From NCBI GenBank assembly GCA_030390025.1, contig CM059434.1, positions 131,502,001 through 131,566,000 of the forward strand: DNA of 64,000 bases. Reading direction: 5' to 3'. This document shows, piece after piece, positions 3,556-34,633 of this stretch (positions are counted from its first letter, which is position 1; each line of letters begins with the position of its first letter). Origin of the DNA: Squalus acanthias (lineage: Eukaryota). Position numbers and translations under genes: made by a program. A model generated the notes under the pieces. The model worked only from the letters and a program-made list of their open reading frames with translations, was not told where the DNA came from and did not search any database.

Positions 3556-5116
3556 GGCCGGAATTCTGCCTCCCTCGGGGGCGGTGGGGGGGGGTCCGGT
3601 GCGGGTGGTGGCCATGGCAGGTCGCGACCCCGCTGCTGGCTCCATCCCGCTGCTGAAAATGGGACCTATTAAGCTCACCCTGCGCGTTGCCCAGCCCAAT
3701 TAGATGGAGTGGGTTTGGTGACGTCATTCATGACACGTTTTCAGCCGGGATCTTTAAAAGGACCATGGCCACATTAGATTTGAAGTTTCATCTAACATAG
3801 TGCTGTCAGTGAAATACAGCATTGGAGTGCTGCAAACACTGACAATGACTGCACAGAGGTACAGGGCTGCACCCAGGTTCTCCAATGACTCCCTCCATAT
3901 GCTTATGGAGGGAGTCAGAGCACGCAGGGTGGAAGAGACCTCCCCAGGAGACCAAAACAACCTGGTTGCAGATTGCAGATGAGGTCACAAGCAGGGATGT
4001 GGTCAGGAGGACCTGGGAGCAGTTCCGCAAACGTTTCAATTATCTCATTAGATCAGGAAACGTTAGTACAAAGCCACACTCAACCTCATCCTGCTGTGCC
4101 TCTCATCACGTCCCCATCACTCTGCCTTCCCTACCCTACTCCTGCACATCCTTACTCATGCCAACAAACCTTGCACGTCCACCCATCCCTCTCTCTCTAT
4201 CTACATTATCACTTCCCCATCTCACTAGCCACCCCTCACACTCACCCTCATCCTAGTCCAATCATATCAACTAACAACACACAAGGGTAGCCACTTGGGT
4301 GTTTTATCCAATGTTTATGTAAAATTTCTGTTAATGTGGTGTCAAACATAAAAATCTTTATTTTCAACACTTTTTGGTCTTGGACAGATTCGTGTGCACC
4401 TTTGGAAGTGGCTTAATGAGTTGCAGTGAATGGTGAGACATAACGGTAGCCCCCCCCCGCAATGGTGATGAGTGTGAAAGGAATGGCTTGGGCATTGTAG
4501 GGATGCTTTATGATGTTGGTGTGGGGTGCTGCCAACCTGGCGCATCATTTGGCAGCCATATGGGTGTACAGCGTCAAGCGAAGTAAATCGGGTCATGATG
4601 AGGCCATCCCTGGCCTCCTGGGCAGCAATGTTGTCAGGTGCTGATGCCCTCTGTCCTGTGCAGCATCAGGTGATTGCGGAGAAAATTGGTGCTGCTGGTG
4701 TTGGGGCTCATCGTGGTCCAATTCTGATAACCAAGGTGAGACAGAATAAACAGCACCCATGTTGATGGAATAGATGGCAGGTGAAGTACAGATGACACAA
4801 GCATTCTGTCAATGGTGAGAGAGTTCTTCCAATGAGCTGAGACTGGATGAAGACTTTGCTGGAAAGACTTGCAGCCTGCAGAATCTGTGCTAGAAATGGA
4901 CTGAGCAACAGCTTCTGTCTGAGGAAAGTGATCATCTGTCAGGTGGGAGCTTTTACTGTACATTTCATGCTGTCAAGTAATCAGCTGGAGCAATGGCCAC
5001 TGAACTCCCGCCTCAGGTTGACAGACGTGGTTCCCGAACTGCGTGAATCCCGTGGCCATGCAGGGAAATTAAAAAAGTAAGAGGAAAAAGCCTCTTAAGC
5101 GCCTGTGAACTACCTG
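3556..5116 (+). mobile_element. PIF/Harbinger-like DNA transposon remnant with Myb/SANT-like ORF; probably resumes at 8001-8056
   Basis: RAAPRFSNDSLHMLMEGV...WLQIADEVTSRDVVRRTWEQFRKRFNYL at about 3855-4040 (frameshifted), a trihelix Myb-like motif; GC-rich terminus 'ggccggaattc'. Confidence 0.65.
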
Positions 5117-7996
5117 ATAATCCGTAATAAGGTGGATGAATTGACTGTGCAAATTGATGTTAACGGATATGATGTGATTGGGATTACAGAGACGTGGCTC
5201 CAGAACAATCAAGGCTGGGAACTGAATATCCAGGGGTATTCAACATTCAGGAAGGATAGAATAAAAGGAAAAGGGGGTGGGGTAGCATTGCTGGTTAAAA
5301 AGGAGATTAATGCAATAGCTAGGAAGGACATTAGCTTGGAGGATGTGGAATCAATATGGGTTGAGCTGCAGAACACCAAAGGGCAGAAAACGTTAGTGGG
5401 GGTTGTGTACAGACCTCCAAACAGTAGTAGTGAGATGGGGGAGGGTATGAAACAGGAAATCAGAGATGCATGCAAAAAAGGCGCAGCAGTTATCATGGGT
5501 GACTTTAATATGCATATAAATTGGGCTACTCAAACTGGAAGCAATACGGTGGAGGAGGATTTCCTAGAGTGTTTAAGGGATGATTTCCTAAACCAATATG
5601 TTGAGGAACCAACTAGAGGGAAGGCCATCCTGGACTGGGTGTTGTGTAATGAGGAAGGACTAATCAGCAATCTTGTGGTGCGAGGCCCCTTGGGGAAGAG
5701 TGACCATAGTATGGTGGAGTTCTACATTAGGATGGAGAAGGAAACAGTTAATTCAGAGACCATGGTCCAGAACTTAAATAAGGGCAACTTTGAGGGTATG
5801 AGGCGTGAATTGGCGAGGTTAGATTGGCAAGCGATATTTAAGGGGTTATCAGTGGAAGGGCAATGGCAGACATTTAGAGATCGCATGGATGAACTACAGC
5901 AATTGTACATCCCTAACTGGCGTAAAAATAAAAAAGGGAAGGTGGCTCAACCATGGCTAACAAGGGAAATCAGGGATAGTATTAAAAGCAAGGAAGTGGC
6001 ATACAAATTGGCCAGAAGTAGGAGCAAACCCGGGGACTGGGAGAACTTTAAAACTCAGCAGAGGAGGACGAAGGGTTTGATTAGGGCAGGGAAAATAAAA
6101 TATGAAAGGAAGCTTGCGGAGAACATTAAAACGGACTGCAAAAGCTTCTATAAATATGTAAAAAGAAAGAGGTTAGTAAAAACAAACGTAGGTCCCCTGC
6201 AGTCAGAAACAGGGGAAGTCATAATGGGGAACAAAGAAATGGCAGATCAATTGAACAAGTACTTTGGTTCGGTGTTTACTGTGGAGGACACAAACAACCT
6301 TCCGGAAATAAAAGAGATCAAAGGATCTGGTAAGAGGGAGGAGCTGAGGGAAATCCTTATCAGTCGGGAAAAGGTGTTGGGGAAATTGATGGGACTGAAG
6401 GCTGATAAATCCCCAGGGCCTGATGGTCTGCATCCCAGAGTACTTAAGGAGGTGGCCTTGGAAATAGTGGATGCATTGACGATCATTTTCCAACATTCCT
6501 TAGACTCTGGATCAGTTCCGAAGGAGTGGAGGGTGGCTAATGTAACCCCTCTTTTTAAAAAAGGAGGGAGGGAGAAAGCAGGGAATTATAGACCGGTCAG
6601 CCTGACATCGGTGGTGGGTAAAATGATGGAATCAATTATTAAAGATGTCATAACAGACCATTTGGAAAGTAGCGACATGATAGGTCCAAGTCAGCATGGA
6701 TTTGTGAAAGGGAAATCATGCTTGACAAATCTTCTGGAATTTTTTGAGGATGTTTCCAATAGGGTGGACGGGGGGGAACCAGTAGATGTGGTGTATTTGG
6801 ACTTTCAGAAGGCCTTCGACAAGGTCCCACACAAGAGATTGGTGTGCAAAGTTAAAGCACATGGGATTGGGGGTAATGTGTTGACGTGGATTGAGAACTG
6901 GTTGGCACACAGGAAACAAAGAGTAGGAGTAAATGGGTACTTTTCAGAATGGCAGGCAGTGACCAGCGGGGTACCGCAGGGTTCGGTGCTGGGGCCCCAG
7001 CTGTTTACATTATATATTAATGATTTGGACGAAGGGATTAATTGTAATATCTCCAAATTTGCGGATGACACTAATTTGGGAGGCATTGTGAACAATGAAG
7101 AGGATGCTAGGAGGCTACAGAGTGACTTGGACAGGTTGGGTGAATGGGCAAATGTATGGCAGATGAAGTACAATGTGGATAAATGTGAGGTTATCCACTT
7201 TGGTGGTAAAAATAGGGAGGCAGACTATTACCTGAATGGTGGCAGATTAGGGAAATTGGGAGGTGCTACGAGACCTGGGCATCATGGTACATCAGTCACT
7301 GAAGGTGGGAAGGCAAGTGCAGCAGGCAGTCAAGAAAGCAAATGGCATGATGGCCTTCATAGCAAGGGGATTTGAGTACAGGAGTAGGGAGGTGATGCTA
7401 CAGTTGTACAGGGCCTTGGTGAGGCCACACCTGGAGTATTGTGTGCAGTTTTGGTCTCCTAACTTGAGGAAGGACATTCTTGCTATTGAGGGAGTGCAAC
7501 GAAGGTTCACTAGATTGATTCCTGGGATGGCCAGACTGACATATCAAGAAAGATTGGATCAACTGAACTTGTATCCTCTGGAGTTCAGAAGAATGAGGGG
7601 GGATCTTATAGAGACGTTTAAAATCCTGACTGGTTTAGACAAATTAGATGCGGGCAGAATGTTTCCAATGTTAGGGAAAACTAAAACCAGGGGTCACAGT
7701 CTAAGGATAAAGGGAAAGCCATTTAAGACTGAGATGAGGAGGAACTTCTTCACCCAGAGAGTGGTGAATCTGTGGAATTCTCTACCACAGAAGGTTGTTG
7801 AGGCCAGTTCGCTAAATATATTCAAAAGGGAGTTAGATATAATACTCACAACTAGGGGGATCAAGGGGTATGGCGAGAAAGCAGGAATGGGGTACTGAGG
7901 TAGCATGTTCAGCCATGAACGCATTGAATGGCGGTGCAGGCTCGAAGGACCGAATGGTCTACTCCTGCACCTATTTTCTATGTTTCTATGTTTCTA
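5117..7996 (+). mobile_element. CR1 LINE, nearly complete ORF2 (APE endonuclease plus RT), one frameshift near 7260
   Basis: ORFs 5105-7375 and 7263-7898 (ITETWL, GDFN, SDH, PQGSVLGP, FADD); (TTTCTATG)n tail; ATAAT repeated at 5117-5121 and 7996-8000. Confidence 0.95.
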
Positions 7997-8056: not shown

Positions 8057-8722
8057 GGTAAGCTTTTTATTTCGACTGGTATTAAATTGACAGCAAGATC
8101 AATTCTTTTGGAACAATTTGGAATAAGTTTATTAAACACACACACTCATGCACATCAAAACAATAGCCTACTGGTATCTACGGACTCTACTCAATTACAA
8201 CAGGTAAGGTAATGGGTTAGATTTAAACAGACTTGCACTTCCCTGAGTCAAGCAATGCACGCGGCCTTTTTCCTTGCTTCTTGCTCTGGTCTGTAGAGGG
8301 AGGGCTTCCTGCTTTTCCGCATGGTCATCCAGAGAGAGAGAGAGAGCCTTTTATATCTTTTTAAGTCCATTGTCTCTAGTCTAAATTGCTAAGACCCCAG
8401 GATTGGGTCTTAGTTTCCTGGCAGTTCTTGATTGGCTTTCCTTTGAACATGTGTCTGTCTGCAGTGGCTGGGGCCATTTCTTGATTCAGTTAATTGTTTG
8501 TTAACACCTTTTAATGGCTCTTGAGTTTTGATGGTGAGTTTCGATGGTGTCTCTGTGGGGGTTTTCCTGTTATGCAGGTTTCCTTTGTTAGGTTTCACGC
8601 CGTTGCCTTGAGCTCCGCTCCCAGGGAGATCTTTACACATCAAATTCATCTTTATTACATACATCTGATATTGATAGTCTCGAGTCCATCACACATACAA
8701 AACATATATTTTTATTCTTACA
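8057..8722 (-). repeat. 3' LTR
   Basis: Direct repeat of 15754-17161. Minus strand has CCAAT boxes (~8401, ~8431), TATAAAA (~8350) and AATAAA (~8128-8133). Preceded by purine-rich GAGGCGGGGAATC (PPT, 8723-8735). Terminal base altered (GGTAAG instead of TGTAAG on the plus strand). Confidence 0.92.
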
Positions 8723-8770
8723 GATTCCCCGCCTCGAGGAGGAAATATCCTTATTGACCCCTCATTTGGT

Positions 8771-9013
8771 TTATCTCCTCAGGGCTCGCATATGGTGGTT
8801 CAGTTTCCTAAGGAGTTTTCTCAGGTAGCAGATCACGATGATCCCCACCACTACAATTATGGCTTGTGCCAGTATCATAAGCATTGAGAGGGTTCTGAGC
8901 CAGGGGTGTTGTCCTACATTATACATTGTTTCCCACCATGGACTGGCTCCTAGCTTTGTATAGCTCTGCTGTTTATGGCATTGTTCTGTGTCATCTGTAT
9001 TCGTATCATGGTC
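8771..9013 (-). CDS. 80-aa single-pass transmembrane ORF in the env position (small TM protein or env remnant)
   Basis: Stop-free from the acceptor ACTGAACTTGTTTCCCACAG (AG at 9015-9014): DHDTNTDDTEQCHKQQSYTKLGASPWWETMYNVGQHPWLRTLSMLMILAQAIIVVVGIIVICYLRKLLRKLNHHMRALRR*. Confidence 0.65.
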   Translation of the reverse strand, partial: DHDTNTDDTEQCHKQQSYTKLGASPWWETMYNVGQHPWLRTLSMLMILAQAIIVVVGIIVICYLRKLLRKLNHHMRALRR

Positions 9014-9040
9014 CTGTGGGAAACAAGTTCAGTGTAGTGT

Positions 9041-10150
9041 TTACTCTTTGGCAGTTTTTAACTGGTTAATATGATACCATTTCTTGTACTTAACGCCTTT
9101 TCCCCCGGGTAACTGAATCAAATAAACCGCGGGGTTCAATCGGTCTGTAATCGTTTGCGGTCCCCACCACCTGGGCTCAAAGGCATGCTTCTTTTTCCCA
9201 TAATTTTGAATCATTACGGTGACCCCCACCTGATACTCAAAGGGACGTACTTTCTTGTCAAAGTACCTTTTAATTTGTCTTTTTGACTTCCCCAATTTCG
9301 TGGCCACAAATCGATTCATCTGATCGGTGCGATCGACCACTTGTTCCAGCCACTTGGAACTACATGGTTCATTGTCAAGGGGCTGATCCCCGTTAGTGTT
9401 AGCTGGCCTGGCGTTCTCATGAGTCTCCCCATAATGGCTCCTGCTGTTTTATGAGGTGTGGACCTTATTGCCATTAAGCACATTGGCAGCATGTTAGCCC
9501 ATCGAGTGGGGTGGTCCGCACACAATTATTTTACATTAACTTGAGGGTCCTGTACCCCCTTTCGACCCCTCTGGACGACTGGGGGTGGTGAGCAATATAT
9601 AGTTCGTGTTTTATCCCCAACATTTCCTGCAGGTGGGTAAAAATCTTACCGGTAAAGTGCGAACCTTGATCACTGTCCACTTGTACCGGTGACTCCCCAC
9701 CTACAAAACACATGATTTAATAGTGTTTTGGCTGCCATGATTGTGGTGTTGGAGCGGCAGGGGAATGCTTCGATCCATTTAGTGAATTGATCCACCACCA
9801 CTAGGACATGCTGAAAATTGCCTTGCGCCTGTGGAAGTGGCCCAATGAAGTCTATCTGGAGGTGAGTCCATGGCCCTTGAGGTGGGGGCGCGCTTTGAAG
9901 CGAGGCTCGGTTAGTGCACGTGGGAGGATTGTGCTGCAGGCACGGTCGGCATCGTGCCACATTAGGTTGATTGTTTCCCTCATGGAAGGCCACCCAGCTG
10001 TGGACGCTGCCTTATAGAAGGTCACCAGGGCCGAATAGTGCCCTGCCGTGGGGTGGGAGTGGAAGAGGGAGAGCAGTTCCTGACCCACCTCTGGTGGAAC
10101 ACACACCACCGGCCAGGCGTGTGGCTTTCTTTTGAACATCAGCAACTGCT
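9041..10150 (-). pseudogene. pol: Integrase domain of pol (frameshifted)
   Basis: HSHPTAGH...CRPC (HHCC), LQIDFIGPLP, VVVDQFTKWIEAFP, DSDQGSHFT, PQSSRGVER, PRWWGP, WYHINQLK. Confidence 0.93.
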
Positions 10151-10359
10151 CCGCTGAGTCAGGGGCAGTGGCTAGTATGGTATTGGGGGCCCAGGCTGTC
10201 GGTTGAGGAAGGGGTCTGCCTTCCTCGTGCCAGGCGCTTACAACGGCGTATGGCTAGTATTGCTGCTGCAGGGATTTTAAATCTAGGTGATCAGTTGGGG
10301 AGCCCTAGCTAACAGCATTGCAGGGCTCAACAACTATATCCTCTATCTCCCCATCAATC

Positions 10360-10790
10360 GCAGCGTCCTTGGCTGCTCTGTCTGCTCTGGAATTTCCCTC
10401 ACTATGTGGACCCCCTTTTCTATGGGCTGCTACCTTTCCTATGAAGCAGGGCTGGGATCGCTGTTTAAGGTATAACCAGAGCAGGCGTAACCAGGGCCCA
10501 TGGACCAGGGCCTTACTGTCTATTGTACGGTAGTCATTTTTGTGGTATGGGGCAAGGAGAGCACGGTGTTTATAGCACAGGCACTATCGGACCAAATATT
10601 CACGGGTCTATCTGAGGATTATTTCACGGCGGTTAGAAGTGCGGCGATTTCTGCATATTGTGAGGACTGTCAGTTGCATCATCGCTGGATGGTTCTCTCT
10701 GGCAATACCACAGCATACCCGGTGTGGGGGGATCCCTCGATGTGATACGAGGACCCATCAATGTAGACATCTGGGGCTCCCTGTATGGGC
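10360..10790 (-). pseudogene. pol: Retroviral-type RNase H domain of pol
   Basis: Manual translation gives VYIDGSS..GYAVV, SSQYAEIAALLTAV, VNIWSDS, KVAAH, GNSRADRAAK (D-E-D-H-D set), with in-frame stops. Confidence 0.88.
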
Positions 10791-10853
10791 TCTTTCTGCA
10801 CAGGATGGGTCTCAAAGTTAATCAGGGGTAGCGGACATTCATGCGGTTCCCCC

Positions 10854-11876
10854 TTGGACTTTCCGAAGGCTTTCGATAAGGTCCCGCATAAGAGATTAGC
10901 GTGTAAAGTTAAGGCACATGGGATTGGGGGCAAGGTATTGACTTGGATAGAGAACTGGTTGGCGGACAGAAAGCAAAGAGTTGGAATAAATGGGTCTTTT
11001 TCCGAGTGGCAGGCGGTGACTAGTGGGGTACCGCAGGGATCGGTCCTAGGACCCCAGCTATTCACAATATATATTAATGATCTGGACGATGGAATTGGAT
11101 GTAATATCTCCAAGTTTGCAGACGACGCAAAGCTGGGTGGGAGTGTGTGCCGTGAGGAGGATGCCGAGAAACTCCAGTATGATTTGGACAGGTTGGGTGA
11201 TTGGGCAGAAGCATGGCAGATGCAATATAATGTGGATAAATGCGAGGTTATCCACTTTGGTGTCAAAAACAGGAAGGCAGATTATTATCTGAAAGGCAAT
11301 AGATTGGGAGAAGGGGAAGTGCAACGAGACCTGGGTGTCCTTGTGCACCAATCGCTGAAGGTAAGCATGCAGGTGCAGCAGGCGGTTAAGAAGGCAAATG
11401 GTATGTTGGCCTTCGTAGCGAAAGGGTTCGAGTACAGGAACAAGGATGTCTTGCTGCAGTTGTACAGGGCCTTGGTGAGACCACATCTTGAGTATTGTGT
11501 GCAGTTTTGGTCGCCTTATCTGAGGAAGGATGTTCTTGCCATGGAGGGAGTGCAGCGAAGATTCACCAGGCTGATACCCGGGATGGCAGGAATGGCGTAT
11601 GAGGAGAGATTGGGTCGATTGGGCTTATACTCACTGGAGTTTAGAAGAATGAGAGGGGATCTCATTGAAACTTATAAAATTCTAACAGGACAGGACAGAC
11701 TAGATGCGGGAAGGATGTTCCCGATGGCCGGGGAGTCCAGAACCAGGGGTCACAGTCTAAGATGAGGCGGTAAGCCATTTAGGACTGAGATGAGGAGGAA
11801 TTTCTTCACCCAGAGAGTGGTGAACCTGTGGAATTCTCTACCACAGAAGGCAGTAGAGGCCAATTCATTAAATATA
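10854..11876 (+). mobile_element. Internal CR1 ORF2 fragment inserted into the proviral pol; both ends truncated, no tail or TSD
   Basis: ORF 10785-11765 is CR1 RT from LDFPKAFDKV onward. Removing the fragment restores pol LPQFLVYE-GEPHEC. Confidence 0.9.
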
Positions 11877-13319
11877 TCATAAACCAGAAATTGTGGCAGC
11901 AATGTGGTGGGTTTGGAAATGATACCAATGTCTCTTTCCATAAATTCCAATGTCCATTTGCTGAGGCGCTGCGAGGAAACTAGCGAATCTCCAGGTTTCA
12001 TCAGTCGGTTCAGAGGCGTGTGAGCGCTGTGAAGGATGGTCACTTGTAGCCCAGAAATAAAGGTAAAATAATGTAGCGCCCAGAAGACGGCCAGCAGGTG
12101 GCGCTCACATGCAGGATTCGAGACGCATATGCAATGGGCTGTCGTCGATCAGCTCGCGTTCGGCACAGAACTGCGGCGAGGCTTTGTTCTGTGGCCCCAA
12201 CCTCCAAATGGAAGGACTGCGTGGGATCTGGAGGAATCAGACATGCGGCCTGCATCACTGCAGTTTTTAATTTGGCCACGGACTGGGTGTGAGCATCAGT
12301 CCATGCCGGGCGTAGGTCATCACCCTGCAGTTGTATCAAATCATACAGGGGCTTTGCGCACTCTGCAAAGCCTGGGATAAAGTTCCTTTGGTACCTCACC
12401 AAACCCAAGAATGGTCGTAGGGCTGTTTTGGAACTGGGTAATGGTAGTCGCTGTATTATCTCCACCTTGTGGGAGTCGGGGGATGATCCCTCTGGAGAAA
12501 TGGACGCTCCTAGAAAGGTGACCCGTTCTTTCACCAACTGAGCCTTCCGGGGATTCACCTTTAGTCCCGCCTGAGCCAACAATGTCAACACTTCGTGCAA
12601 AAGGGACCGATGCTCCTCCATGCTATCAGTTGCCAGCAGTAGATCGTCTACATACTGTAGCAAGCAGGTAGGGTGGGAAAAGTCTTTTAAAACTGCAGCC
12701 ATTCTTTTGTGGAAGATCGTGGGGGCATTGTGGAACCCCTGAGGCAGGCATGTCCAGGTGTAGCTCTGGTCCTCAAATGTGAACGCGAATTTGTACTGGT
12801 CCTCCCTTTTAACAGGGATACTCCAGAATCCATTGGCGATGTCGAGGGTCGAGAAGTACTTGGAACCAGCAGGATTTGAGATAATATGGTGGGAGCTCCT
12901 CTTACTACCGGTGAGCAGGCTGGCGTTACAGAATTTAACTTTCTGTAATCAATGGTCAGTCGCCAGCTGCTATCGGGCTTTTTAACTGGCCATGTGGGTG
13001 AATTGGTTGTGAAAGTGCCTGTCCTAACAACACCCTGCTCGACTAGGGATTTTATGGTGTCTCGGATGTAAGGGTGACTCTCCCTTGGGATGGGGTACTG
13101 TTTGGTGAATGAGTGGGGGGGTCCCTCAATAGACTTTTCGCCTGCCATTTTTCCACAATCGTGCTTGCACGTGGCAAACACCGCTCGGTATTCCTGAATT
13201 AGTTTTGCCACAGCTTCATTTTCGCTCCCCGGACGGTCACACTCGGATAGCTTTATAATAGCAAAAACAGAGTGAGCATCTGAAATTTCTATCACTTTTG
13301 CATTATTTCTCAATCCCAT
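11877..13319 (-). pseudogene. pol: Reverse transcriptase plus degenerate RNase H-like tether of pol
   Basis: NSPTWPVKKPDSSWRLTIDYRKLN, LPQGFHNAPTIFH, LLQYVDDLLL; tether FHLEVGATEQSLAAVL...PIAYASRIL lacks the catalytic DAS. Confidence 0.93.
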
Positions 13320-13720
13320 CTAAACACAGTCCCGATTGTAATCTATTACTGCGTCATTCTGATCCAACACATCAGTCCCTAAAATTCCCCTTCCGTCAGG
13401 GGTGGTCATCAGCATCGGCGCTGGGACCTCACAGGTGAGGCCTCCCAACTGAAGTTCAGAGGCCTTCCCTGTCTACGCGGTGGTTGTATCACCATTAAAC
13501 CCTTTAAGGGCCATACAACCCTTGCCCGCCGCTGCATGGCGTTCAGAGTATGGGGTGTGGATGATGGTAACGGCTGAGCCAGTGTCTATCAGCATAATCT
13601 GCTGCCGGCCCCCTTTTAAGATAACAAGGACTACTGGTCTCCCCGCTACCATCACATCGTAACCCCAGTTCCGACCAATCTTTGGGGGCCAAACCCCGTC
13701 ATAGAGTGGATCCTTGGAGG
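13320..13720 (-). pseudogene. pro: Retropepsin protease
   Basis: MLIDTGSAVTII in ORF 13473-13988; GILGTDVL near 13365-13390. Confidence 0.85.
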
Positions 13721-13917
13721 GGTCCCTCCAATAGGTGTGCATTGACGATAGGGTTTTGCATTCCCAATGGGTGTGCATTGGCGATTGCGTGCACCGGTAA
13801 ATGATTTTGCATCCCCCCCCCCCCCCGTGACAATTTGGGCTTTCATGAGGGTTATCAACTGGTCCAATTGTTGATCCGTCCCAGAGGGCTTGGATTCGTC
13901 CTTTTTTAGAAGGGTAA

Positions 13918-15583
13918 CTAACTGAGCCAATTGTTGTTCCATCCAGAGGGTTTGGGTTCGTTCCTCGGGAGGTATCTATGCGTTGCATCGTGATCCGGTG
14001 CCTGTCTGGGTCTCCGGCAGTGTTTTGCTCGGTGACCTTCCTTCTTACAATTAAAGCACTGTCCCCTAAAGGGGTAGTACCTCGATCCCTCCACCGCTGA
14101 CACTGCTTTCTTTGCGGTGGGTGGTGACTTCACCTTTAACTGGTCTTTTACCATCTCCCAGGCTCTTTGAACGTTAGTCTCTATATTTGTCCACTGATCG
14201 GCGGGCCTCGCGGCTATGCCCAGGGTGGTTTTAACGAGAGTGGAGTTGGGTCAGGAACGTTGTTCTGAATTGTTCCTGGTCCTTTCTTGCTGCAGCATGT
14301 GCGGGTGCCTGGTTCTGGGGACGTTCACAGATATCGTACAGGCGATTACTGAAGGCTCTAGGGGTCTCATCTGGGCGCTGTTCAGTCTGACTAAGCATAG
14401 CCACTAAGTTTAAGTTTTGGATCCCTAAATGGTTTAGGATCTCGGTCACGACTGCATCGGTCGCTGTGCCACGCTGGAGGATCACGTCTGGCAGATTATT
14501 CTTTAAAGAAGTGGAACAGGCCAAGAGGAGGACGCGTGTTAAGTCTCCCTCGTCTAACTCTGGGTGACACCTCCTGAAATCTGCCCACCTTCTATTAACT
14601 ACCAGTGGGTCGTCCCCATCATTAATGGGCCCCAACTCGTGGCTACACACCGTGGCGTCAGTACCAAATATGGGCCGTGAGTCGGTATGGTTACTAATGA
14701 TGTGACCATGCACGTTACGCTGTAAAGAGGTGGTCACTACTGCTACGGTTGGCCCTTGTGTCTCCAAGGTATCCCATCCTACACCGCCCTCCTGGGGATT
14801 ATACTGACTGCCTTCCTCTTCCCAATCTGTCTCCCCCTCGTCCCCTTCTGTTGTCTCTGTTCTGGCTCCCCGTGTTACTGCGGATACTAGAGCCTGTTGC
14901 TGCCCTAATTTACTCTTTAGCCGCGCTATTTCTAGGTGGCACCGGGAGTGGTCTGCCTCCCTATGTGGCTTCTTAATTGCTTCCCTTAATGCCCCCCTAA
15001 CGTCTTCTACTTCCTGACGGAGCCCCAGGTTTTCCAATTTAGATTTCTTGATGGCTAATCTGGTTTCATTTGCTGCAGCGACGGCTGCTCCTGCATTTAA
15101 ATTTGAGAGGCTTCGTTGCTGTAGCAATGAAGCTGCCTGCTCGGCTCCTCTTTCTAGTTGCCTGATACTGTGGCTTAATCGATCGATTTCTTGTCTCAAA
15201 TGCTGGCTTTCTCCCTCCTTTAACTGCCTAACAAGCTGGATGCCTTCTTCTTTCTGTTCTTTCATACTTTGAATCTCTTTTTCTTTTAGTTGAATTTCTT
15301 TGACTTTTAGTTCTTTTAAATCTTGTATCTCTCCCTTTAAATCTCGAATCTCTTTTGCATCCTGCCTCATCAATTCCTCATCTCTCCGAGCACAGTAATG
15401 TGCCCCGAATGCCAAGAGACCGTTTGCCTGTTTGGGCCTTAGCTTTCCCTCATCTACCCTCTCCTGGATAAATGCCACGAGCTCCCCAAAGGCCGCATGT
15501 TGGCCCTTACAGATGTATCGTGCCCGTAACTCTTGTAAGTCCCTTATGGACACCTTTTCGTATATTTTTTTCTGGTAGGCCAC
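13918..15583 (-). pseudogene. gag: Gag (coiled-coil N-terminal region, capsid-like region, CCHC knuckle), frameshifted
   Basis: 450-aa ORF 14231-15583 immediately after the PBS; Q.PDETPRAFSNRL motif; CFNCKKEGHRAKHC in ORF 13918-14154. Confidence 0.88.
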
Positions 15584-15732
15584 AGCTACGGCTTTTGCTG
15601 GCTTTTCCTATGCCCCCGATCCCTTCCTCCTGTGTCTTTTGAATTTACTGTTAAACTTTGCACCGCAGGTTAGAATCGCAACTCCCAAAATTTCCAATTG
15701 TTTAACAGAATGATCGAAAGCTGTCTCGCCAG

Positions 15733-15749
15733 ATCCCAATGAGCCCCCA
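15733..15749 (-). promoter_or_regulatory. Primer-binding site, tRNA-Pro-like
   Basis: TGGGGGCTCATTGGGAT, 4 nt after the 5' LTR; the canonical Pro PBS is TGGGGGCTCGTCCGGGAT. Confidence 0.8.
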
Positions 15750-15753
15750 GTTT

Positions 15754-17161
15754 TGTAAGCTTTTTATTTTGACTGGCATTAAATTAACAGCAAGACCAAT
15801 TCTTTTGAAACTATTTGGAATAAGTTCATTAAACACACACACTCGTGCACATCAAAACAATAGCCTACTGGTATCTACGGACTCTACTCAATTACAACAG
15901 GTAAGGTAATGGGTTAGATTTAAACAGACTTGTACTTCCCTGAGTCAAGCAATGCACGCGGCCTTTTTCCTTGCTTCTTGGTCTGGTCCTTCAGTGTGCC
16001 AGTACAGCCTTCGGTCACCTGAGGAAGAGAGTGTTTGAAGACCAGGACCTCAAACCCGGCACCAAGCTCATGGTCTACAGAGCAGTAGTGATACCCGCCC
16101 TCCTGTATGCCTCAGAGACATGGACCATGTACAGCAGGCACCTCAAAGCACTGGAGCAGTACTACCAATGCTGTCTTTGCAAGATACTGCAAATCCATTG
16201 GCAGGATAGGCGTACCAACGTCAGTGTTCTCGCTCAGGCCAACATCCCCAGCATCGAAGCTTTGACCACACTCGATCAGCTCCGATGGACGGGCCACATC
16301 GTCCGCATGCCCGATACGAGACTCCCAAAACAAGCGCTCTACTCGGAGCTGTGACGGGGCATGAGAGCCCCAAGTGGGCAGAGGAAACGCTTCAAGGACA
16401 CCCTCAAAGCCTCCTTGAAAAAGTGCAACATCCCCACCGACACCTGGGAATCCCTGGCCCAAGACCGCACAAAGTGGAGGAGAATCATCTGGGAAGGCAC
16501 CGAACACCTCGAGTCTCTTTGCCGGGAGCAAGCGGAAGCCAAGCGCGAACAGTGGAAGGAGCGCACGTCAACCCAAGCACCCCACCCACCCGCCCCTTCA
16601 ACCACCGTCTGCCCCACCTGTGACAGAGACTGTAGGTCCCGCATTGGACTCATCAGTCACCTGAGAACTCATTTTTAATGTGGAAGCAAGTCATCCTCGG
16701 TTCCGAGGGACTGCCTAAGAAGAGAGGGAGGGCTTCCTGCTTTTCCGCTTGGTCATCCAGAGAGAGAGCGAGAGCCTTTGGGTTCCTTATTTTATATCTT
16801 TTTAAGTCCATTGTCTCTAGTCTAAATTGCTAAGACCCCAGGATTGGGTCTTAGTTTCCTGGCAGTTCTTGATTGGCTTTCCTTTGAACAAGTGTCTGTC
16901 TGCAGTGGCTGGGGCCATTTCTTGATTCAGTTAATTGTTTGTTAACACCTTTTAATGGCTCTTGAGTTTCGATGGGTTTTCGATGCTGTCTCTGTGGGGG
17001 TTTTCCTGTTATGCAGGTTTCCTTTGTTAAGTTTCGCGCCGTTGCCTTGAGCTCCGCTCCCAGGGAGATCCATACACATCAAATTCATCTTTATTACATA
17101 CATCTTATATTAATAGTCTCGAGTCCATCACACATACAAAACATATATTTTTATTCTTACA
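15754..17161 (-). repeat. 5' LTR, interrupted by an RTE fragment
   Basis: TGTAAG...CTTACA termini; colinear with 8057-8722 once 15986-16722 is removed. Confidence 0.92.
15986..16722 (+). mobile_element. RTE-clade LINE 3' fragment inserted in the 5' LTR
   Basis: AFGHLRKRVF, LLYASETW, LRWTGHIVRMPDTRLPKQ, C-terminal CPTC..C..H..H; TAAGAAG tail. Confidence 0.9.
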
Positions 17162-21160: not shown

Positions 21161-21904
21161 GGGGTAAGAATTGAGTCGCGCCCCTTTTGGGGCGCTAACC
21201 TCGCCGGGGCGCGACTTTTAGCGCCCCGAAAAAATTAGCGGCCCCGCGCCGGAACTTCAGTGGTTGCGCCCCAAGAGGGAAGCGGGGCGCAACTGGAAGC
21301 AGCCCGCATCCCTCTTGGGGCGCTGCGAGTGAATATCCTGGCGCTACGCTGCGGCACGTCGCGCCGCGGTATTGCAGGCCTTCCTCCCCTTCTTAAAGGG
21401 GAGGGACCCTGCGCAGCGCGAACCGGGGCCCAGCTGGGCCCCCAGGGATCGGGAGTGCCGGCAAAAGAGCCCGGCACTCAAGAGAAGTGCTGGGCTCTTG
21501 GAGCGCAGCCGGCACTTCACGGTGGGGGGGCTTCACGGGGGCCGGGGGCAGGTGCTGGCAGGCGGCCAGCAACAAAAATGGCCGCCTGCCACCTCCGCTT
21601 TAAATATCGCCGCCCCGGCCGCACGTACGCCTCCCTGAACCTGTCGGACATAGCGTCTGGCGGTAAATCAGGGGGCGCGACTGAAGATCACGGCCGGGGC
21701 GCGAGCGGGGTGCTGCGCACGGCGATGACGTCATCGCCGGCGGCGCAGCGCCACAGGGCGCTACCGGCTGCCGCCGCCGCTAACCTCCCACTAAATTTTT
21801 CGGGAGGCGTGGGCGGCGCTGCGCCCGGGCGTTAGCTGCTTTACGCCCCATTAGCGCCCTCTTAAGGCGCTAACGGGAGGCGCAAGCAGCTGAATTTTTC
21901 CCCC
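21161..21904. mobile_element. GC-rich non-autonomous DNA transposon (Harbinger-like MITE)
   Basis: Imperfect TIRs GGGGTAAGAATTGAG / CTGAATTTTTCCCCC; 3-bp TSD TAT inside a (GATTCTAT)n CR1 tail. Confidence 0.7.
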
Positions 21905-27130: not shown

Positions 27131-30100
27131 AACATAAGAACATAAGAAATAGGAGCAGGAGTAGGCCAATCGGCCCCTCGAGCCTGCTCCGCCATTCAAT
27201 AAGATCATGGCTGATCTGATCCTAACCGCCAATCTACTATCTATCACAGAACCATCTCCTGCATCTAACAGAATTGCACACACGAAATAGGAGCAGAATC
27301 AGGCTACACAGTCCCTGGGCCCGCTCCACTACCCACAGGGCCATGACCGATCCGAACCTAGACTCATGTCCAAATTCCTGCCCGCTCCCCGTAACCCTTA
27401 ATGCCCTTTACTTCTAGGAAACTGTCTATTTCTGTTTTAAATTTAATTAATGTTGTAGCTTCTACAGCTTTTTGTGGCAGCATATTCCATGGACCTACCA
27501 CCCTCTGAGTGAAGTAGTTCCTCCTCATCTCAGTTTTGAAAGAGCAGCCCCTTATTCTAAGACTATGTCCCCTAGTTCTCGTCTCACCCGTCATCGGGAA
27601 CATCCTCCCCGCATCCACCCGATCCAACCCCTTCACAATCTTATATGTTTCAATAAGATCGCCTCTCATTCTTCTGAACTCCAATGAGTAGAGTCCCAAT
27701 CTACCCAACCTCTCCTCATATGACCACCCCCTCATCCCCGGGATTAACCGAGTGAACCTTTTTTGCACTGCCTCGAGAGCAAGGATGTCTTTCCTTAAGT
27801 AAGGACACCAAAACTGTATGCAGTATTCCAGGTGCGGTCTCACCAATACCTTGTACAACTGAAGCAATACCTCCCTATTTTTATATTCTATCCCCCTAGC
27901 AATGAAAGCCAACATTCCATTTGCCTTCTTAATCACTTGCTGCACCTGCATACTAACCTTTTGAGTTTCGTGCACCAGGACCCCCAGATCCCTTTGCACT
28001 TCAGTACTCTCCAGTTTCTTGCCATTAAGATAATAAATTGCTCTAGGATTTTTCCTGCCAAAGTGCATCACCTCACACTTTCCAGTGTTGTATTCCATCT
28101 GCCAAATCTCTGCCCACTTACTTAGCCTGTCTATGTCCCCTTGCAGGTTTTTTATGTCCTCCTCACTCACTACTTTCCCTCCCATCTTTGTATCATCTGC
28201 AAATTTTGATATGTTACACTTGGTCCCTTCCTCCAAATCGTTAATATAGATTGTGAAGAGTTGGGGACCCAGCACTGACCCCTGTGGAACACCACTAGTT
28301 ACTGATTGCCAGTCTGAGAATGAACCATTTATCCCAACTCTTTGCTTTCTGTTAGATAGCCAATCCTCTATCCATGCCAGAATATTACCCCCAATCCCGT
28401 GATTTTTTACCTTAAGCAATAATCTTTTGTGTGGCACCTTGTCAAATGCCTTTTGGAAGTCTAAATACACTACGTCCACTGGTTCCCCTTTATCCACTCT
28501 ATATGTTACTTCCTCAAAGAACTCCAGCAAATTTGTCAAACATGACTTCCCCTTCGTAAAACCATGCTGACTTTGTCCTATTAAATTATGATTATCCAAA
28601 TGTCCTGTTACTGTTTCCTTAATAATGGACTCCAAAATTTTACCTACCACAGATGTTAGGCTAACCGGTCTATAGTTACCAGCCTTCTGTCTACTGCCCT
28701 TTTTAAATAAGGGTGTTACATTAGCAGTTTTCCAGTCTGCCGGGACCTTAGCGGAATCCAGGGAGTTTTGAAAAATTATTACCAATGCATCTACAATCCC
28801 TACCGCCACTTCCTTCAAGACTCTAGGATGTAAGCCATCAGGTCCAGGTGATTTATCCGCCTTGAGTCCCATTATTTTACCGAGTACCACTTCCTTAGTG
28901 ATTTTGATCGTGTTTAGCTCCTCTCCCCCTATAGCCCCCTGTTTGTCCAGTGTTGGGATATTCTTAGTGTCCTTTACTGTAAAGACTGATACAAAATATT
29001 CATTCAGTGTTTTTGCCATCTCCATATTTCCCACCATTAATTTCCCGGTCTCATCCTCTAAGGGACCAACATTTACTTTAGCCACCCTTTTTCTTTTTAT
29101 ATAACTATAAAAACTCTTACTACCTGTTTTTATATTTTTTGCTAATTTACTTTCATAATCTATCTTCCCTTTCTTAATCAATCTTTTTGTTATTTTTTGC
29201 TGCCTTTTAAAGTTTTCCCAATCCTCTGTCCTCCCACTAGATTTCGCTACCTTATATGCCCTTGTTTTTAGTCGAATACGATCCTTAATTTCTTTACTTA
29301 GCCACGGATGACTGTCCTTTCTTTTACACCCTTTTCTTTTCAGTGGAATATATTTTTTTTGGAAGTTGTAAAATAACTCCTTGAATGTACACCACTGATC
29401 ATGTGTCGTCTTACCCTTTAATCTATTTTCCCAATCCACTCTACTCAATTCCGCTCGCATACCTTCATAGTCTCCTTTATTCAAGCTTAGCACGCTTGTT
29501 TGAGATCCAACCTTCTCACCCTCTAATTGAATATGGAATTCAACCATGTTATGGTCACTCATTCCAAGGGGATCCTTTACTAGGACATTTTTAATTAATC
29601 CTGTCTCGTTACACAGGACCAGATCTAAGGTTGCTTGCCCCCTGGTCGGTTCAGTTACATACTGCTCAAGAAACCCATCCCTAATACACTCAATGAACTC
29701 ATCCTCAAGGCAGCCCTGCCCCATTTGATTTGTCCAATTAATATGATAGTTAAAATCCCCCATAATTATAGATGTTCCCTTATTACATGCCTCAACTATT
29801 TCCTGATTGATACTCCGTCCAATAGAGTTGCAACTGTTCGGAGGCCTATAGACTACGCCCACTAATGTTTTTTTCCCCTTATTATTCCTTATCTCCACCC
29901 AAACTGTTTCATTATCATGATTTTTTGACCCAATATCATTACTCTGTATTACAGTGATTCCTTCCTTTATTAACATAGCCACCCCACCTCCCCTTCCTTC
30001 CTGCCTGTCCTTCCTGATCGTTAAATAACCTGGTATGTTTAATTCCCAGGCATTGTCACCCTGCAGCCATGTTTCTGTAATGGCCACAATATCATAACCA

Positions 30101-31222
30101 TATGTAGTTATTTGTGCCATTAACTCGTCTATTTTGTTACGAATGCTACGTGCATTCAGATAGAGAACTTTCAAATATGCTTTGTGGCACTTAGTTCCTG
30201 CTTTTTCACTTTTTACCAGTTTACCTTTTACTCCACACACTCTGTCCCTTCCTGCCACACTCTGATTTGTGATTCCCCTACTGCTACCTATGTCTATGAC
30301 CCTCTCTGTTGTCATTTTTATTTTTTGCTCTCTTGAAACCTCCCCCCCACTAATTAGTTTAAAGCCCTCTCCACAGCCCTAGTTATTCGATTCGCCAGGA
30401 CACTAGTCCCAGCACTGGCCAAGTGAAGTCCGTCCCAACGGAACAGCTCTCTCCTGCCCCAGTACTGGTGCCAGTGTCCCAAGAAGCAAAACCCATTTTT
30501 CCCACACCAGTCTTTGAGCCACGCATTCAACTCCCTGATTTTATTTACCCTAGCCAAATTTGCTCGTGGCTCAGGTAGTAATCCAGAGATTATTACCCTC
30601 GAGGTTCTGCTTTTTAATTTGGCCCCTAGCTGCTCAAACTCCCTCAGCAGAACCTCTTTCCTTGTCCTATCTGTCATTGGTACCAACATGGACCACGACA
30701 ACTGGATCCTCCCCCTCCCACTCCAAGTTTCTCTCCAGCCCAGAGGAGATGTCCTTAACCCTGGCACCGGGCAGGCAACACAGCCTTCGGGACTCTCGCT
30801 CTTGGCTGCAAAGAACCCTATCTATCCCCCTAATGATACTATCCCCTACCACTACAACATTTATTTTTACTCCCCCCACTTGAATGGCCCCCCTTACCAC
30901 GGTGCTGTGGCCAGGTTGCTCATCCTCCCTGCAGTCCCCGCTCCTATCCACACAGGGAGTAAGAGCCTCGAACCTGTTGGACAAGAGCAAGGGCTGCGGC
31001 TCCTCCAACACTACCTCCTGGATCCCTGTACCTGCCTCACTCGTAGTCACACCTTCCTGTCCCTGACCACGGGCTACTTCTGAATTAGTTACTCTAATTG
31101 GTGTGACTACCTCCTGAAACACGGAGTCCAGGTAACTCTCCCCCTCCCTGATGTGTCGCAGTGTTTGAAGCTCGGACTCCAGCTCATCAACACGGAGCCG
31201 GAGTTCCTCGAGCAGCCAACGG
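27131..31222 (-). mobile_element. CR1 LINE with intact ORF2 and frameshifted, 5'-clipped ORF1
   Basis: ORF1 pieces 30667-31242 and 30354-30767 (GDS, GTND, DGLHL); uninterrupted ORF2; (TTCTTATG)n tail at about 27131-27150. Confidence 0.95.
27364..30315 (-). CDS. CR1 ORF2 (APE endonuclease plus reverse transcriptase), 983 aa, intact
   Basis: YLNARS, ITETWL, GDFN, SDH, QHGF, LDFQKAFD, PQGSVLGP, FADD all in one frame. Confidence 0.93.
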   Translation of the reverse strand: MTTERVIDIGSSRGITNQSVAGRDRVCGVKGKLVKSEKAGTKCHKAYLKVLYLNARSIRNKIDELMAQITTYGYDIVAITETWLQGDNAWELNIPGYLTIRKDRQEGRGGGVAMLIKEGITVIQSNDIGSKNHDNETVWVEIRNNKGKKTLVGVVYRPPNSCNSIGRSINQEIVEACNKGTSIIMGDFNYHINWTNQMGQGCLEDEFIECIRDGFLEQYVTEPTRGQATLDLVLCNETGLIKNVLVKDPLGMSDHNMVEFHIQLEGEKVGSQTSVLSLNKGDYEGMRAELSRVDWENRLKGKTTHDQWCTFKELFYNFQKKYIPLKRKGCKRKDSHPWLSKEIKDRIRLKTRAYKVAKSSGRTEDWENFKRQQKITKRLIKKGKIDYESKLAKNIKTGSKSFYSYIKRKRVAKVNVGPLEDETGKLMVGNMEMAKTLNEYFVSVFTVKDTKNIPTLDKQGAIGGEELNTIKITKEVVLGKIMGLKADKSPGPDGLHPRVLKEVAVGIVDALVIIFQNSLDSAKVPADWKTANVTPLFKKGSRQKAGNYRPVSLTSVVGKILESIIKETVTGHLDNHNLIGQSQHGFTKGKSCLTNLLEFFEEVTYRVDKGEPVDVVYLDFQKAFDKVPHKRLLLKVKNHGIGGNILAWIEDWLSNRKQRVGINGSFSDWQSVTSGVPQGSVLGPQLFTIYINDLEEGTKCNISKFADDTKMGGKVVSEEDIKNLQGDIDRLSKWAEIWQMEYNTGKCEVMHFGRKNPRAIYYLNGKKLESTEVQRDLGVLVHETQKVSMQVQQVIKKANGMLAFIARGIEYKNREVLLQLYKVLVRPHLEYCIQFWCPYLRKDILALEAVQKRFTRLIPGMRGWSYEERLGRLGLYSLEFRRMRGDLIETYKIVKGLDRVDAGRMFPMTGETRTRGHSLRIRGCSFKTEMRRNYFTQRVVGPWNMLPQKAVEATTLIKFKTEIDSFLEVKGIKGYGERAGIWT

Positions 31223-33875
31223 TGAAGATAGCTGAAAGTCAAGTGAGCGAGCTAAGCACTGTTCCTTGCTTACCTGCTTGACCCCCAGTCTGTCGCTGCA
31301 GTGTTCAGCCAGAATAGGGGAGTGGGACTAGTTGCTGGCTCTTTGGTAGAACCAGGCAGGCACGATGGGCTGGATGGCCTCTTTCTGTGCTGTATGATTC
31401 TATGATGATACCAGAACTGAGAGCGTGCAACTGTCAGGAAAGACTGAACAGGCTGGGGTTCTTTTCTCCAGCGGTGACCTGATAGAAGTCTTTAAAGTTA
31501 TGAAGGGGTTCAATAGGGTAGATGTAGAGAAGATGTTTCCACTTGTGGGGAGTCCAAAACTAGGGCCATACATGTAGGATAGTCAGTAATAAATCCAATA
31601 AGGAATTCAGGAGAAACTTCTTTACTCAGAGATTGGGGAACTCGCTACCTATTGGAGTAGTTGAGGCGAATAGTATCGATGCATTTAAGGGGAAGCCAGA
31701 TAAGTACATGAGGGAGAAAGGAATAGACGGATATGTTGATAGGGTGAGAGGAGGCTCATGTGGAGTATAAAACCAGCATGGACCTGTTGGGCCGAATGGC
31801 CTGTTTCTGTTCTGTAACCTCTATGTAACGATCTTTTGAAAGCCTGCACGCTTCATTTCGATGCACTCCAGCAGATTACACCCATTTTACATGGGATTTA
31901 TGTCAATCACTGCTCCAATGGATGTGCAATGAGCTGACCCAGGAAACCCTCGTGTAAATACCGCTCCAGACTACCAGCGGGTGCAAATCTTTTTCCAGTG
32001 TTTTTCAATGTCCTTCAAATGTCCTTCACCTGTTCCTAACATCTCCAATGTTTCTTTTTCTTAAACAGACATCACAAACACCTTGATATTTAAAAAAGCA
32101 GGAAGTACAGGGTGGCAATCTCAAAGGGCTTGTAGCTAATGGACTTCCTTCCATTTCAGGCGTCTTCCCTTCTATTATGCACCACTTTGTCTTGCAAGCA
32201 AGTAAGTACATAAGGACAAAGAACATAAGAAATAGGAGCAGGAGTCGGCCATTCGGCCCCTCGAGCCTGCTCCGCCATTCAATAAGATCATGGCTGATCT
32301 TCTACCTCAACTCCACTTTCCAGCACTATCCCAATATCCCTTGATTCCCTTAACATCAAAAAATCTATCGATCTCTGTCTTAAATATACTTAACGACTGA
32401 GCTTCCACAGCCCTTTGGGGGAGAAAATTCCAAAGATTCACGACCCTCTGAGTGAAGAAATTTCTCTCATCTCAGTCCTAAATGGCTGACCCCTTATTCT
32501 GAGACTGTGACCCTTGGTTCTAGACTCCCCAGTCAGGGGAAACATCCTCCCTGCATCTACCCTGTCAAGCCCTGTAAGAATTTTGTATGTTTCAATGAGA
32601 TCACCTCTCATTCTTCTAAACTCTAGAGAATATAGGCCTAGTCTACTCAATCTCTCCTCATAGGACAATTCCCCCCCATCCCAGGAATCAGTCTGGTGAA
32701 CCTTCGTTGCACTCCCTCTATGGCAAGTATATCCTTCCTTAGGTAAGGAGACTAAAAGTGTGCACACTACTCCAGGTGTGGTCTCACCAGGGCCCTATAT
32801 AATTGCAGTATGACGTCTTTACTCTTATACTCAAATCCTCTTGTAATAAAGGCCAACATACCATTTGCTTTCCTAATTGCTTGCTGTACCTGCATGTTAA
32901 CTTTCAGTGATTCGTGTACAAGGACACCCAGGTCCCTCTGAACACCAACATTTCCCAATCGCTCACCCTTTTCTATTTTTCCTACCAAAGTGGATAACTT
33001 CACATTTCTCCACATTATATTCCATTTGCCCTGTTTTTGCCCACTCACGTAGCCTGTCTATATCCCCTTGAAGCCTCTTTGCATCCTCCTCACAACTTAC
33101 ATTCCCACCCAGCTTTGTATCATCAGCAGACTTGGATATATTACATTTGGTCCCCTCATCCAAATCATTGATATAGATTGTGAATAGCTGAGGTCCAAGC
33201 ACTGATCGTTGCGGTACCCCACTAATCACAGCCTGCCAACCCGAAAATGACCCGTTTATTTCTACTCTCTGTTTTCTGTCCATTAACCAATCCTCAATCC
33301 ATGTTAGTATATTACCCCAAATCCCATGAGCCCTAATTTTGTTTAATAACCTCTTGTGTGGCACCTTATCTATTCTGCTAGTTACAACCTCAAAAAACTC
33401 TTAACAGATTTCTCAAACTGGATTTCCCTTTCATAAATCAGTGTTGACTCTGCCCAATCCTATTACTATTTTCTAAGTGCCCTGTTACCACGTCCTTAAT
33501 AATAGATTCTAGCATTTTCGCTACTACTGATGTCAGGCTAACTGGTCTGTAGTTCCCCGTTTTCGCTCTCCCTCCTTTCTTAAATAGTGGGGTTACATTT
33601 GCTACCTTCCAATCCGCGGGAACCGTTCTAGAATCTATGGGATTTTGGAAGATGACAACCAATGCATCCACTATCTCTATAGCCACCTCATTTAAAACCC
33701 TAGGATGTAGGCCATCAGGTCCAGGGGATTTATCGGCTTTCAGTCCCATCAATTTATCCAGTTCTATTGTTTTACTAATACTAATTTCTTTCAGTTCCTC
33801 ATTCTCGCTAGAGCCTTGGTTCGCCCCTATTTCAGGGAAGATTTTTACGTTATCTTCCGTGAAGACAGACACAAT

Positions 33876-34633
33876 GGGCGCAATCTTGCCAGCCCTGGGG
33901 AGGCGGGTATGGAGGCGGGACTGCCATGAAAATGGCAGAATCTGGGGGCGGGTGCCCAACCCGCCCCCAATGCACCTGCGTGCCATCTTGGAGGCGGGAA
34001 GGGGATTAGTGCCACTTATCTGCCTAACAGGCAGATAAGAGGATTATCCCCATTTTACCCACACAAGTGCGGGCTTCCCGAAGGCTCCGAACCCCACCAG
34101 GGTCACCGAGGCGAGCAGTGGGTCTGCGGGGGTCTGCGGGGTGCAAAAGTGCGCTGTGAAGGTAAGTGATGGGTGCAAGTGTGGAGAGGTGAGTATCTGA
34201 GGTAAGTGGAAAGTGTTAGAAAAAGTTTACTTACCTTTGTTTCTTCCTGCAGGCTTCAATCGGTGGGTATGCGGAGAGTCTCGCACCTCCGCGGCAGAGA
34301 TGACAGATGGCCGCTGCATTCTCCAATGCAGCAACCATTTAATTTATGCTAAATAAAGAGGTTTGATGAGTCTTGAATTCAAGAACTCATCAAACTACAG
34401 AGAATGTCAGTGTTTGACAGCTTCACAGAAATTTTTGACAGATGAAACGTCATACGTTGACGTTCTCTGTAACCGGCTTTCCCTTAATTGGCCTGCAAAG
34501 CCCGTTGGGCGGGCTTAACAAGGTCAATCAAGGGAAAATAGCGTGGGTTGGCCAGAAGTTGATGGAGGTGGGACTAAAACCCAACAAGTGGGAGTCCCGC
34601 CTCCAAAAGCTCCCCATTGGCAAAATCCAGCCC
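33876..34633. mobile_element. Harbinger-like MITE, family A copy 1
   Basis: TIRs GGGCGCAATCTTGCCA / TGGCAAAATCCAGCCC; 3-bp TSD AAT/AAA; interrupts CR1 ORF2; alignable with 52140-52925. Confidence 0.8.

Follow-up and report, generated by a model that had tools for sequence, protein, structure and literature searches.

Endogenous retroviruses (ERVs) related to snakehead retrovirus (SnRV) make up clade Huo, which is reported from all major vertebrate lineages (Xu et al. 2018). SnRV-like elements are reported as the main ERVs of the coelacanth (PMC4977317), and class III SnRV-related pol genes accompanied by a gamma-type env have been reported in anamniotes. Among cartilaginous fish, CmiERV scaffold 2, which represents lineage I of the elephant shark (CmiERV-I), clusters with SnRV (Han 2015, PMC4422223); that screen required an env homologue, so env-less families like the one described here would be missed. 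Our literature search found no paper on SnRV-like elements in elasmobranchs. Here we describe a broken provirus of 9.1 kb on the minus strand of Squalus acanthias contig CM059434.1, at 8057-17161 of a 64,000-nucleotide window (131,502,001 to 131,566,000 of the contig; positions count from the first letter of the window). It has paired long terminal repeats (LTRs), a primer-binding site (PBS), retroviral domain order, a dead tether and a second RNase H, belongs to a multi-copy family, has taken up later insertions of long interspersed nuclear elements (LINEs) and, in this copy, has no full env; the copy is dead. It is probably best explained as a decayed provirus with the standard reverse transcriptase (RT)-tether-RNase H-integrase layout, likely an SnRV-related class III element near CmiERV-I that likely spread in the germline after losing most of env.

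The pol region, in the direction of transcription, contains the following features.

13230..13640, minus strand: protease with a DTG motif and two in-frame stops; tblastn with Xenopus tropicalis protein P0002 gives 47% over 241 amino acids, RT start included.
12307..13106, minus strand: RT with YVDD; frameshift near 12875; Pfam RVT_1; 64% identity to P0002.
11878..12306, minus strand: tether (dead RNase H); frameshift near 12110; RT_RNaseH matches; three carboxylates gone.
10854..11876, plus strand: CR1-type LINE fragment of 1023 nt between tether and RNase H; RVT_1 match on the plus strand (E=7e-21).
10356..10853, minus strand: linker and second RNase H with D, E, D, H and D present; three stops and a frameshift near 10549; Pfam RNase_H at E=0.009 (C-terminal piece).
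9041..10355, minus strand: integrase (IN) with H2C2, core and SH3-like C-terminus, interrupted by stops and several frameshifts; the pol stop lies at 9043-9041; Pfam Integrase_H2C2, rve and SH3_Tf2-1.

Pol is collinear with P0002 over its whole length, protease through integrase, with stops and frameshifts in every domain. Pfam matched RVT_1 at 12948-12043 (E=9e-33), followed by RT_RNaseH_2 (E=3.5e-15), and gave no dUTPase match in the element. The tether has G, H and A at the carboxylate positions where all seven Gypsy controls retain D, E and D. The second RNase H has its DGS, AE, SDS, H and AD motifs and matched seven of seven retroviral or loki references (E<=3e-9) and none of the seven Gypsy controls (E>=0.31 or no match). 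The preliminary description, made from the sequence, had read RT, dead RNase H-like tether, second RNase H and integrase in this order, and all the motifs it listed are present on the minus strand; the second RNase H that it called complete is complete in its motifs, with three in-frame stops and a frameshift among them. The pairing of an inactive tether with a second RNase H is the arrangement expected of a member of the Retroviridae. The layout is described as common to all retroviruses, lokiretroviruses and Odin elements (PMC7947760, PMC9040795), so it cannot place the element alone. Contigs were compared in 4 of 20 runs (four organism codes), with loose contig ends dominated by CR1; they covered the family end to end in three runs and in 28/30 bins in the fourth. 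Position 10853 is joined directly to 11877 by contigs of three of the four runs, and the CR1 fragment is therefore a later insertion.

Kinship was gauged by eye against published sequences over two conserved RT blocks. These hand counts, which may be off by a few, gave 90/121 (74%) with CmiERV scaffold 2, 70/119 (59%) with SnRV, 55/119 (46%) with Loki-Lch, 52/119 (44%) with MuERV-L and 50/119 (42%) with simian foamy virus (SFV), by which Pol stands nearer to CmiERV-I and SnRV than to foamy viruses, ERV-L or lokiretroviruses. Judged from sequence, the element is likely a new representative of clade Huo, the SnRV-related group of class III, near CmiERV lineage I, and the family may already have a library name (Repbase, Dfam or subscription literature). 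The probable chondrichthyan host named in the preliminary description would fit this kinship and the abundance of CR1 in the window.

Phylogenies of RT, RNase H and IN, which the preliminary description had called for, all place the element with P0002. The search for relatives used the RT-tether piece as query, and a profile search brought in teleost and lamprey proteins that carry the loki RT motifs of the published alignment. The top group comprised 14 proteins at 43-60% identity, with X. tropicalis (60%), Latimeria (56-58%) and Rhinophrynus among the named hosts; the next matches reached <=39%. Within it, P0001, P0002 and P0231 belong to the X. tropicalis Pol A0A803K6K2 group and P0278 is an unnamed protein. 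RT was read with X at the frameshift and compared with 114 other rows, three more having been dropped for short coverage; of the 115 rows, 79 entered a quick tree and 56 a careful tree, near-duplicates being thinned by hand. Loki rows were identified either from those RT motifs or from their place in the tree, and CPFGY, which also matches many Gypsy proteins, was not used alone. Named representatives of SnRV, CmiERV, foamy viruses, ERV-L, Odin and class II are missing from the trees; the searches, among them an SnRV motif scan, had returned neither SnRV nor CmiERV. In the careful RT tree the element and the class I rows stood on one side (100/99), with loki (100/99) and Gypsy (100/99) separate, and the 79-row tree agreed; the element was nearest to P0002, P0231 and P0278 (100/99). 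RT thus groups with retroviruses, apart from Metaviridae. P0002 was the sister of the element in the IN and RNase H trees, at SH-like approximate likelihood ratio test (SH-aLRT) values of 96 and 88, respectively.

These trees bear on two alternatives. In the first, the element would belong with the lokiretroviruses or be Odin-like, which would make it the first of its kind in cartilaginous fish. It shares the dual RNase H with both; its relatives carry the automatic name NYNRIN-like, and the IN of lokiretroviruses is described as related to CGIN1/NYNRIN; and six chondrichthyan genomes bear no asterisk in the loki screen, which we read as loki-negative, so a true case would be new. The IN tree also contains a weak grouping with loki (87). 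Against this, RT identity is 35-40% to 22 loki-motif proteins versus 64% to P0002, neither loki RT motif, PLSRWP or CPFGY, occurs in the element (which has LPQGF), and forcing the element together with loki cost 51.7 log-likelihood units and was rejected by the approximately unbiased (AU) test (p=0.007). Neither an open reading frame (ORF) nor a Pfam match pointed to a Mononegavirales F-like env, though little env remains. Of the features that define Odin, the dual RNase H and the lack of env are present, and an RT sister to loki was not found in trees that contained no Odin row. We regard this alternative as very improbable, and the loki affinity first proposed for the element is supported neither by the AU test nor by the motifs.

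The second alternative, a Ty3/Gypsy element whose second RNase H was acquired separately, as happened in plant Tat elements, would account for the absence of env, for the UniRef auto-name "Gypsy retrotransposon integrase-like" borne by relatives and for capsid look-alikes in Retrotrans_gag clusters. Two 100/99 branches of the careful RT tree nevertheless lie between the element and 14 Gypsy rows, and RT identity to 37 Gypsy rows is 30-41%, which leaves this origin with next to no credibility. A Ty3/Gypsy identity is refuted by the careful RT tree, and the element does not combine a single active RNase H with a Gypsy-clade RT. The preliminary description was right that this is no standard Gypsy element and that the layout is retroviral, as the 100/99 separation and the failure of the second RNase H to match any of the Gypsy controls indicate. 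Its further suggestion of a poorly sampled basal lineage is not supported, as the nearest published relative is the catalogued CmiERV lineage I. Of the two outcomes that it had named as fatal to its proposal, kinship with a catalogued shark ERV has largely come about (CmiERV-I, 74% in RT), and a place in a Gypsy clade has not.

Two further groups of proteins emerged from the searches. In UniRef and NCBI, frog and coelacanth retroviral Pol proteins (P0001-P0014, P0121 and P0122) carry the automatic names "Gypsy retrotransposon integrase-like" or "NYNRIN-like", which hide this ERV group. In all three trees (RT, IN and RNase H), five dual-RNase H fish retroviral Pol proteins (P0137, P0138, P0142, P0144 and P0148; Anguilla and Alosa are among the named hosts) branch basally in class I, and P0144 heads a cluster of 3937 members.

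Outside pol, the provirus is framed as follows.

15754..17161, minus strand: 5' LTR of ~673 nt, split by the LINE fragment 15989-16722; starts TG and ends CA.
15989..16722, plus strand: 3' fragment of a non-LTR retrotransposon within the 5' LTR, which we take to be RTE-like; a gap in the LTR-LTR match, with LINE-like ORFs at 15944-16354 and 16355-16678.
15733..15749, minus strand: PBS of tRNA-Pro type, 4 nt behind the LTR.
13652..15607, minus strand: gag with frameshifts near 14240 and 13945; long predicted helix, capsid-like part and one CCHC.
8725..8735, minus strand: short polypurine tract ahead of the 3' LTR, read from sequence.
8057..8722, minus strand: 3' LTR of ~665 nt, from the LTR-LTR match.

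LTRs, PBS and polypurine tract frame gag-pro-pol, as in Retroviridae. Both LTRs (17161-15754 and 8722-8057) lie outside the interval first described (9041..15749), which the provirus exceeds. In blastn the LTRs match in two stretches, of 234 nt (95.7% identical) and 441 nt (93.7%); the 660 aligned columns contain 14 transitions and 9 transversions, which gives a Kimura two-parameter (K2P) distance of 0.036. At rates of 0.5e-9 (PMC10699275) or 2.2e-10 (PMC4422223), this corresponds to about 36 to 81 million years, a soft date because both rates are assumed and a target-site duplication was not found.

Gag and the PBS bear on a third alternative, in which the element is either a foamy-like ERV (FLERV, clade Tu) or belongs to an unnamed lineage of class III that is distinct from SnRV. 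The PBS agrees with the tRNA-Pro-like reading made earlier: by eye, 15/18 positions match the murine leukaemia virus (MLV) PBS-Pro probe printed in PMC4587795, the reference being that probe. Gag has a single zf-CCHC at ~14061-14014 (E=0.0011, just under the Pfam cut-off), as first described, and the long coiled coil reported with it corresponds to one predicted helix of 115 residues (residues 58-172, ~15436-15092) in a single-sequence model, with block scores of 70-93 in the predicted local distance difference test (pLDDT) over most of its length. The whole Gag model is weak (mean pLDDT 54), and Foldseek gave no match to it at E<=0.001; apart from CCHC matches, pieces of Gag had no relative in the set of retrieved proteins. 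Atlas look-alikes of residues 270-458 are Retrotrans_gag clusters (0.90), a lead only. The best PDB match of the element is foamy Pol (E=1e-44, ahead of MLV at 1e-35 and Ty3 at 3e-34), shark FLERVs are reported to exist, and the deep class III nodes are unresolved, all of which would suit a foamy-like origin. However, the PDB matches held no SnRV-like competitor, and the hand count is 50/119 for SFV versus 90/121 for CmiERV-I. Foamy and fish foamy-like Gag proteins are described as lacking Cys-His boxes, and their primers as mostly tRNA-Lys, whereas the element has one CCHC and a Pro-type PBS. We consider this third alternative improbable; the spuma affinity proposed earlier holds only loosely, in the sense of ERV class III. 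The ERV-L group, defined in the sources consulted by YIDD, a dUTPase and no Cys-His box, was rejected for an element with YVDD, a CCHC and no dUTPase match. At the gag-protease junction (13728-13830) there is a 17-nt tandem repeat with a G/C homopolymer run.

The interval between the pol stop and the 3' LTR is only ~320 nt long, and this copy holds no env gene there beyond a small membrane ORF.

9014..9033, minus strand: predicted splice acceptor (pyrimidine tract and CAG), read from sequence, just behind the pol stop.
8771..9009, minus strand: small ORF of ~79 codons in the env position, with a frameshift near 8955 in this copy.

The ORF is predicted to encode a hydrophilic N-terminus, one membrane helix and a basic amphipathic tail; a hydropathy scan gave 3.02 for the best 19-mer, six K/R in the following 15 residues and a hydrophobic moment of 0.73. 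Its start codon at 9009 has good context, 5 nt behind the predicted acceptor, and the N-terminus begins MIR. The length of ~79 codons holds only across the frameshift of this copy, and contigs in all four runs differ in length near 8955, keeping start and membrane part in frame. One contig (X1) spans 8932-9256 whole and a second (X2) extends 130 letters past 9001; both keep the short layout, so the short env slot is not private to this copy; with CR1 filling the loose contig ends, the family may also include copies with a full env. A metagenome scan returned 75 loci whose best RT identity was 30-37% in full-length matches; these are class I-like by motif and therefore offer no 3' context for the clade of the element. 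A scan of viral contigs gave 45 pattern matches and no relatives. We consider the ORF most likely to be an env remnant. Its best Atlas look-alike is a cluster in which 11% of members carry GP41 (0.81), a weak lead that leans to env. A Pfam Claudin_3 match of the ORF (E=0.007, below cut-off) was dismissed as a hydrophobic-helix artefact.

The same retrovirus might instead have used the small ORF as a working membrane protein of the fusion-associated small transmembrane (FAST) or sORF2 kind, made from spliced RNA and allowing cell-to-cell passage without env. Published criteria for such proteins, as given by Voichek et al. (2025, bioRxiv 10.1101/2025.03.14.642691), are 60-210 amino acids, one membrane helix, a short ectodomain and >=3 K/R after the helix. 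The predicted product would satisfy several of them (length, one helix, an ectodomain of ~42 amino acids and a polybasic amphipathic tail), with a well-placed start behind the predicted acceptor. Other copies' contigs retain the short layout, with length differences at the break that restore a single frame; a random deletion stays in frame only 1/3 of the time; and the sole listed substitution within the ORF falls at a third codon position (n=1). On the other side, the MGxxxS/T myristoylation motif is absent, as it reportedly is from 2/6 Drosophila sORF2 proteins (Voichek et al. 2025), and no ectodomain window in the piece scanned has a moment >0.6. Any C-terminal env remnant would likewise have a membrane helix and a basic tail, the ORF sits exactly in the env slot and not upstream of gag, and the Atlas lead is to GP41-bearing clusters. 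We therefore treat a working fusogen as a doubtful, secondary possibility. The broader proposal, that a vertebrate retrovirus family swapped Env for a spliced FAST/sORF2-like protein of ~79 residues, a retroviral counterpart of the insect MDG1 sORF2 route, is likewise unlikely, and our literature search found no such swap.

Under the preferred reading, that of an SnRV-related provirus that lost most of env, an SnRV-related retrovirus would have entered the germline. By analogy with retroviral biology, its LTR-driven RNA would have been packaged by the CCHC Gag and reverse transcription primed by tRNA-Pro; the second RNase H would have degraded the RNA strand, with the tether as connector, and integrase would have inserted the copy. 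We suggest that a master copy suffered an internal env deletion that kept acceptor, start codon and membrane anchor, and that the family then multiplied by intracellular retrotransposition. Env-less ERVs are held to proliferate more easily in the view cited by our sources, and those such as ERV-L are still filed as ERVs.

Several observations weigh against this reading. The trees contain no named SnRV or CmiERV row, which leaves hand counts and the position published for CmiERV-I as the basis for assigning the element to the SnRV group. Support for the wider class III group around the element is weak (88/77), with deeper branches unresolved, and in the IN tree the loki rows are loosely grouped with part of its clade. 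CmiERV-I has another PBS sequence, and a full gamma-type env versus the ~79-codon membrane ORF here. None of 56 candidates was a homologue of the small ORF at E<=10, and its N-terminal piece is not hydrophobic, so an env origin is not shown. No target-site duplication was recognized at the provirus ends, and the copy may therefore be a recombinant.

Elsewhere in the window, an uninterrupted 1004-codon CR1-type ORF2 (endonuclease and RT) lies at 27364-30378 on the minus strand, with ORF1-like frames upstream at 30667-31251; it may be a young LINE that is nearly intact. Other CR1-type copies (5099-7898, 38361-40997 and 32200-36900) are 72-85% alike, and the provirus ends ~160 nt from the 3' end of one CR1-type copy. 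A 27-nt minisatellite at 45535-48294 (~102 copies, 95% matches, GC 50-67%) contains open frames several hundred codons long on either strand and is probably non-coding. An inverted repeat at 59584-59846 (90-nt arms, 94% complementary, 83 nt apart) resembles a miniature inverted-repeat transposable element, and 21239-21835 is GC-rich (60%) and resembles a CpG island or promoter. An Rfam scan gave no matches.

Compared with known systems, the element shares the tether and second RNase H with lokiretroviruses and Odin (Wang and Han 2021, 2022), from which it differs in its separate RT clade, its RT motifs and the F-like env of loki. With the sORF2/FAST-like proteins of insect MDG1 elements, the small ORF has in common its size, predicted single membrane helix, polybasic amphipathic tail and env-less host element, and differs in having no myristoylation motif and in lying in the env slot behind a predicted acceptor; were it conserved and expressed, envelope-independent cell-to-cell spread would extend to the Retroviridae, which would matter. 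As classified here, the element says nothing new about how retroviruses arose; what it contributes is a Pro-primed family without env to the SnRV-related ERVs of cartilaginous fish, which are thinly described. SnRV itself has an LLQYVDD-type active site like that of the element and 70/119 RT positions in common with it; unlike the element, it is described as an 11 kb complex virus with a full env and four accessory ORFs. The X. tropicalis A0A803K6K2 group and P0278 are collinear with the element across Pol (64% in RT), P0002 being its sister or near-sister in the RT, IN and RNase H trees, in a different host. CmiERV-I has its own LTRs, different in length and look, and resembles the element in Pol order with tether and second RNase H, in RT (90/121), in an LTR divergence of 0.033 versus 0.036 and, by eye, in a Gag whose N-terminus is rich in E, K and Q and which has one CCHC, and in an acceptor-like site immediately after the pol stop, ahead of its env.

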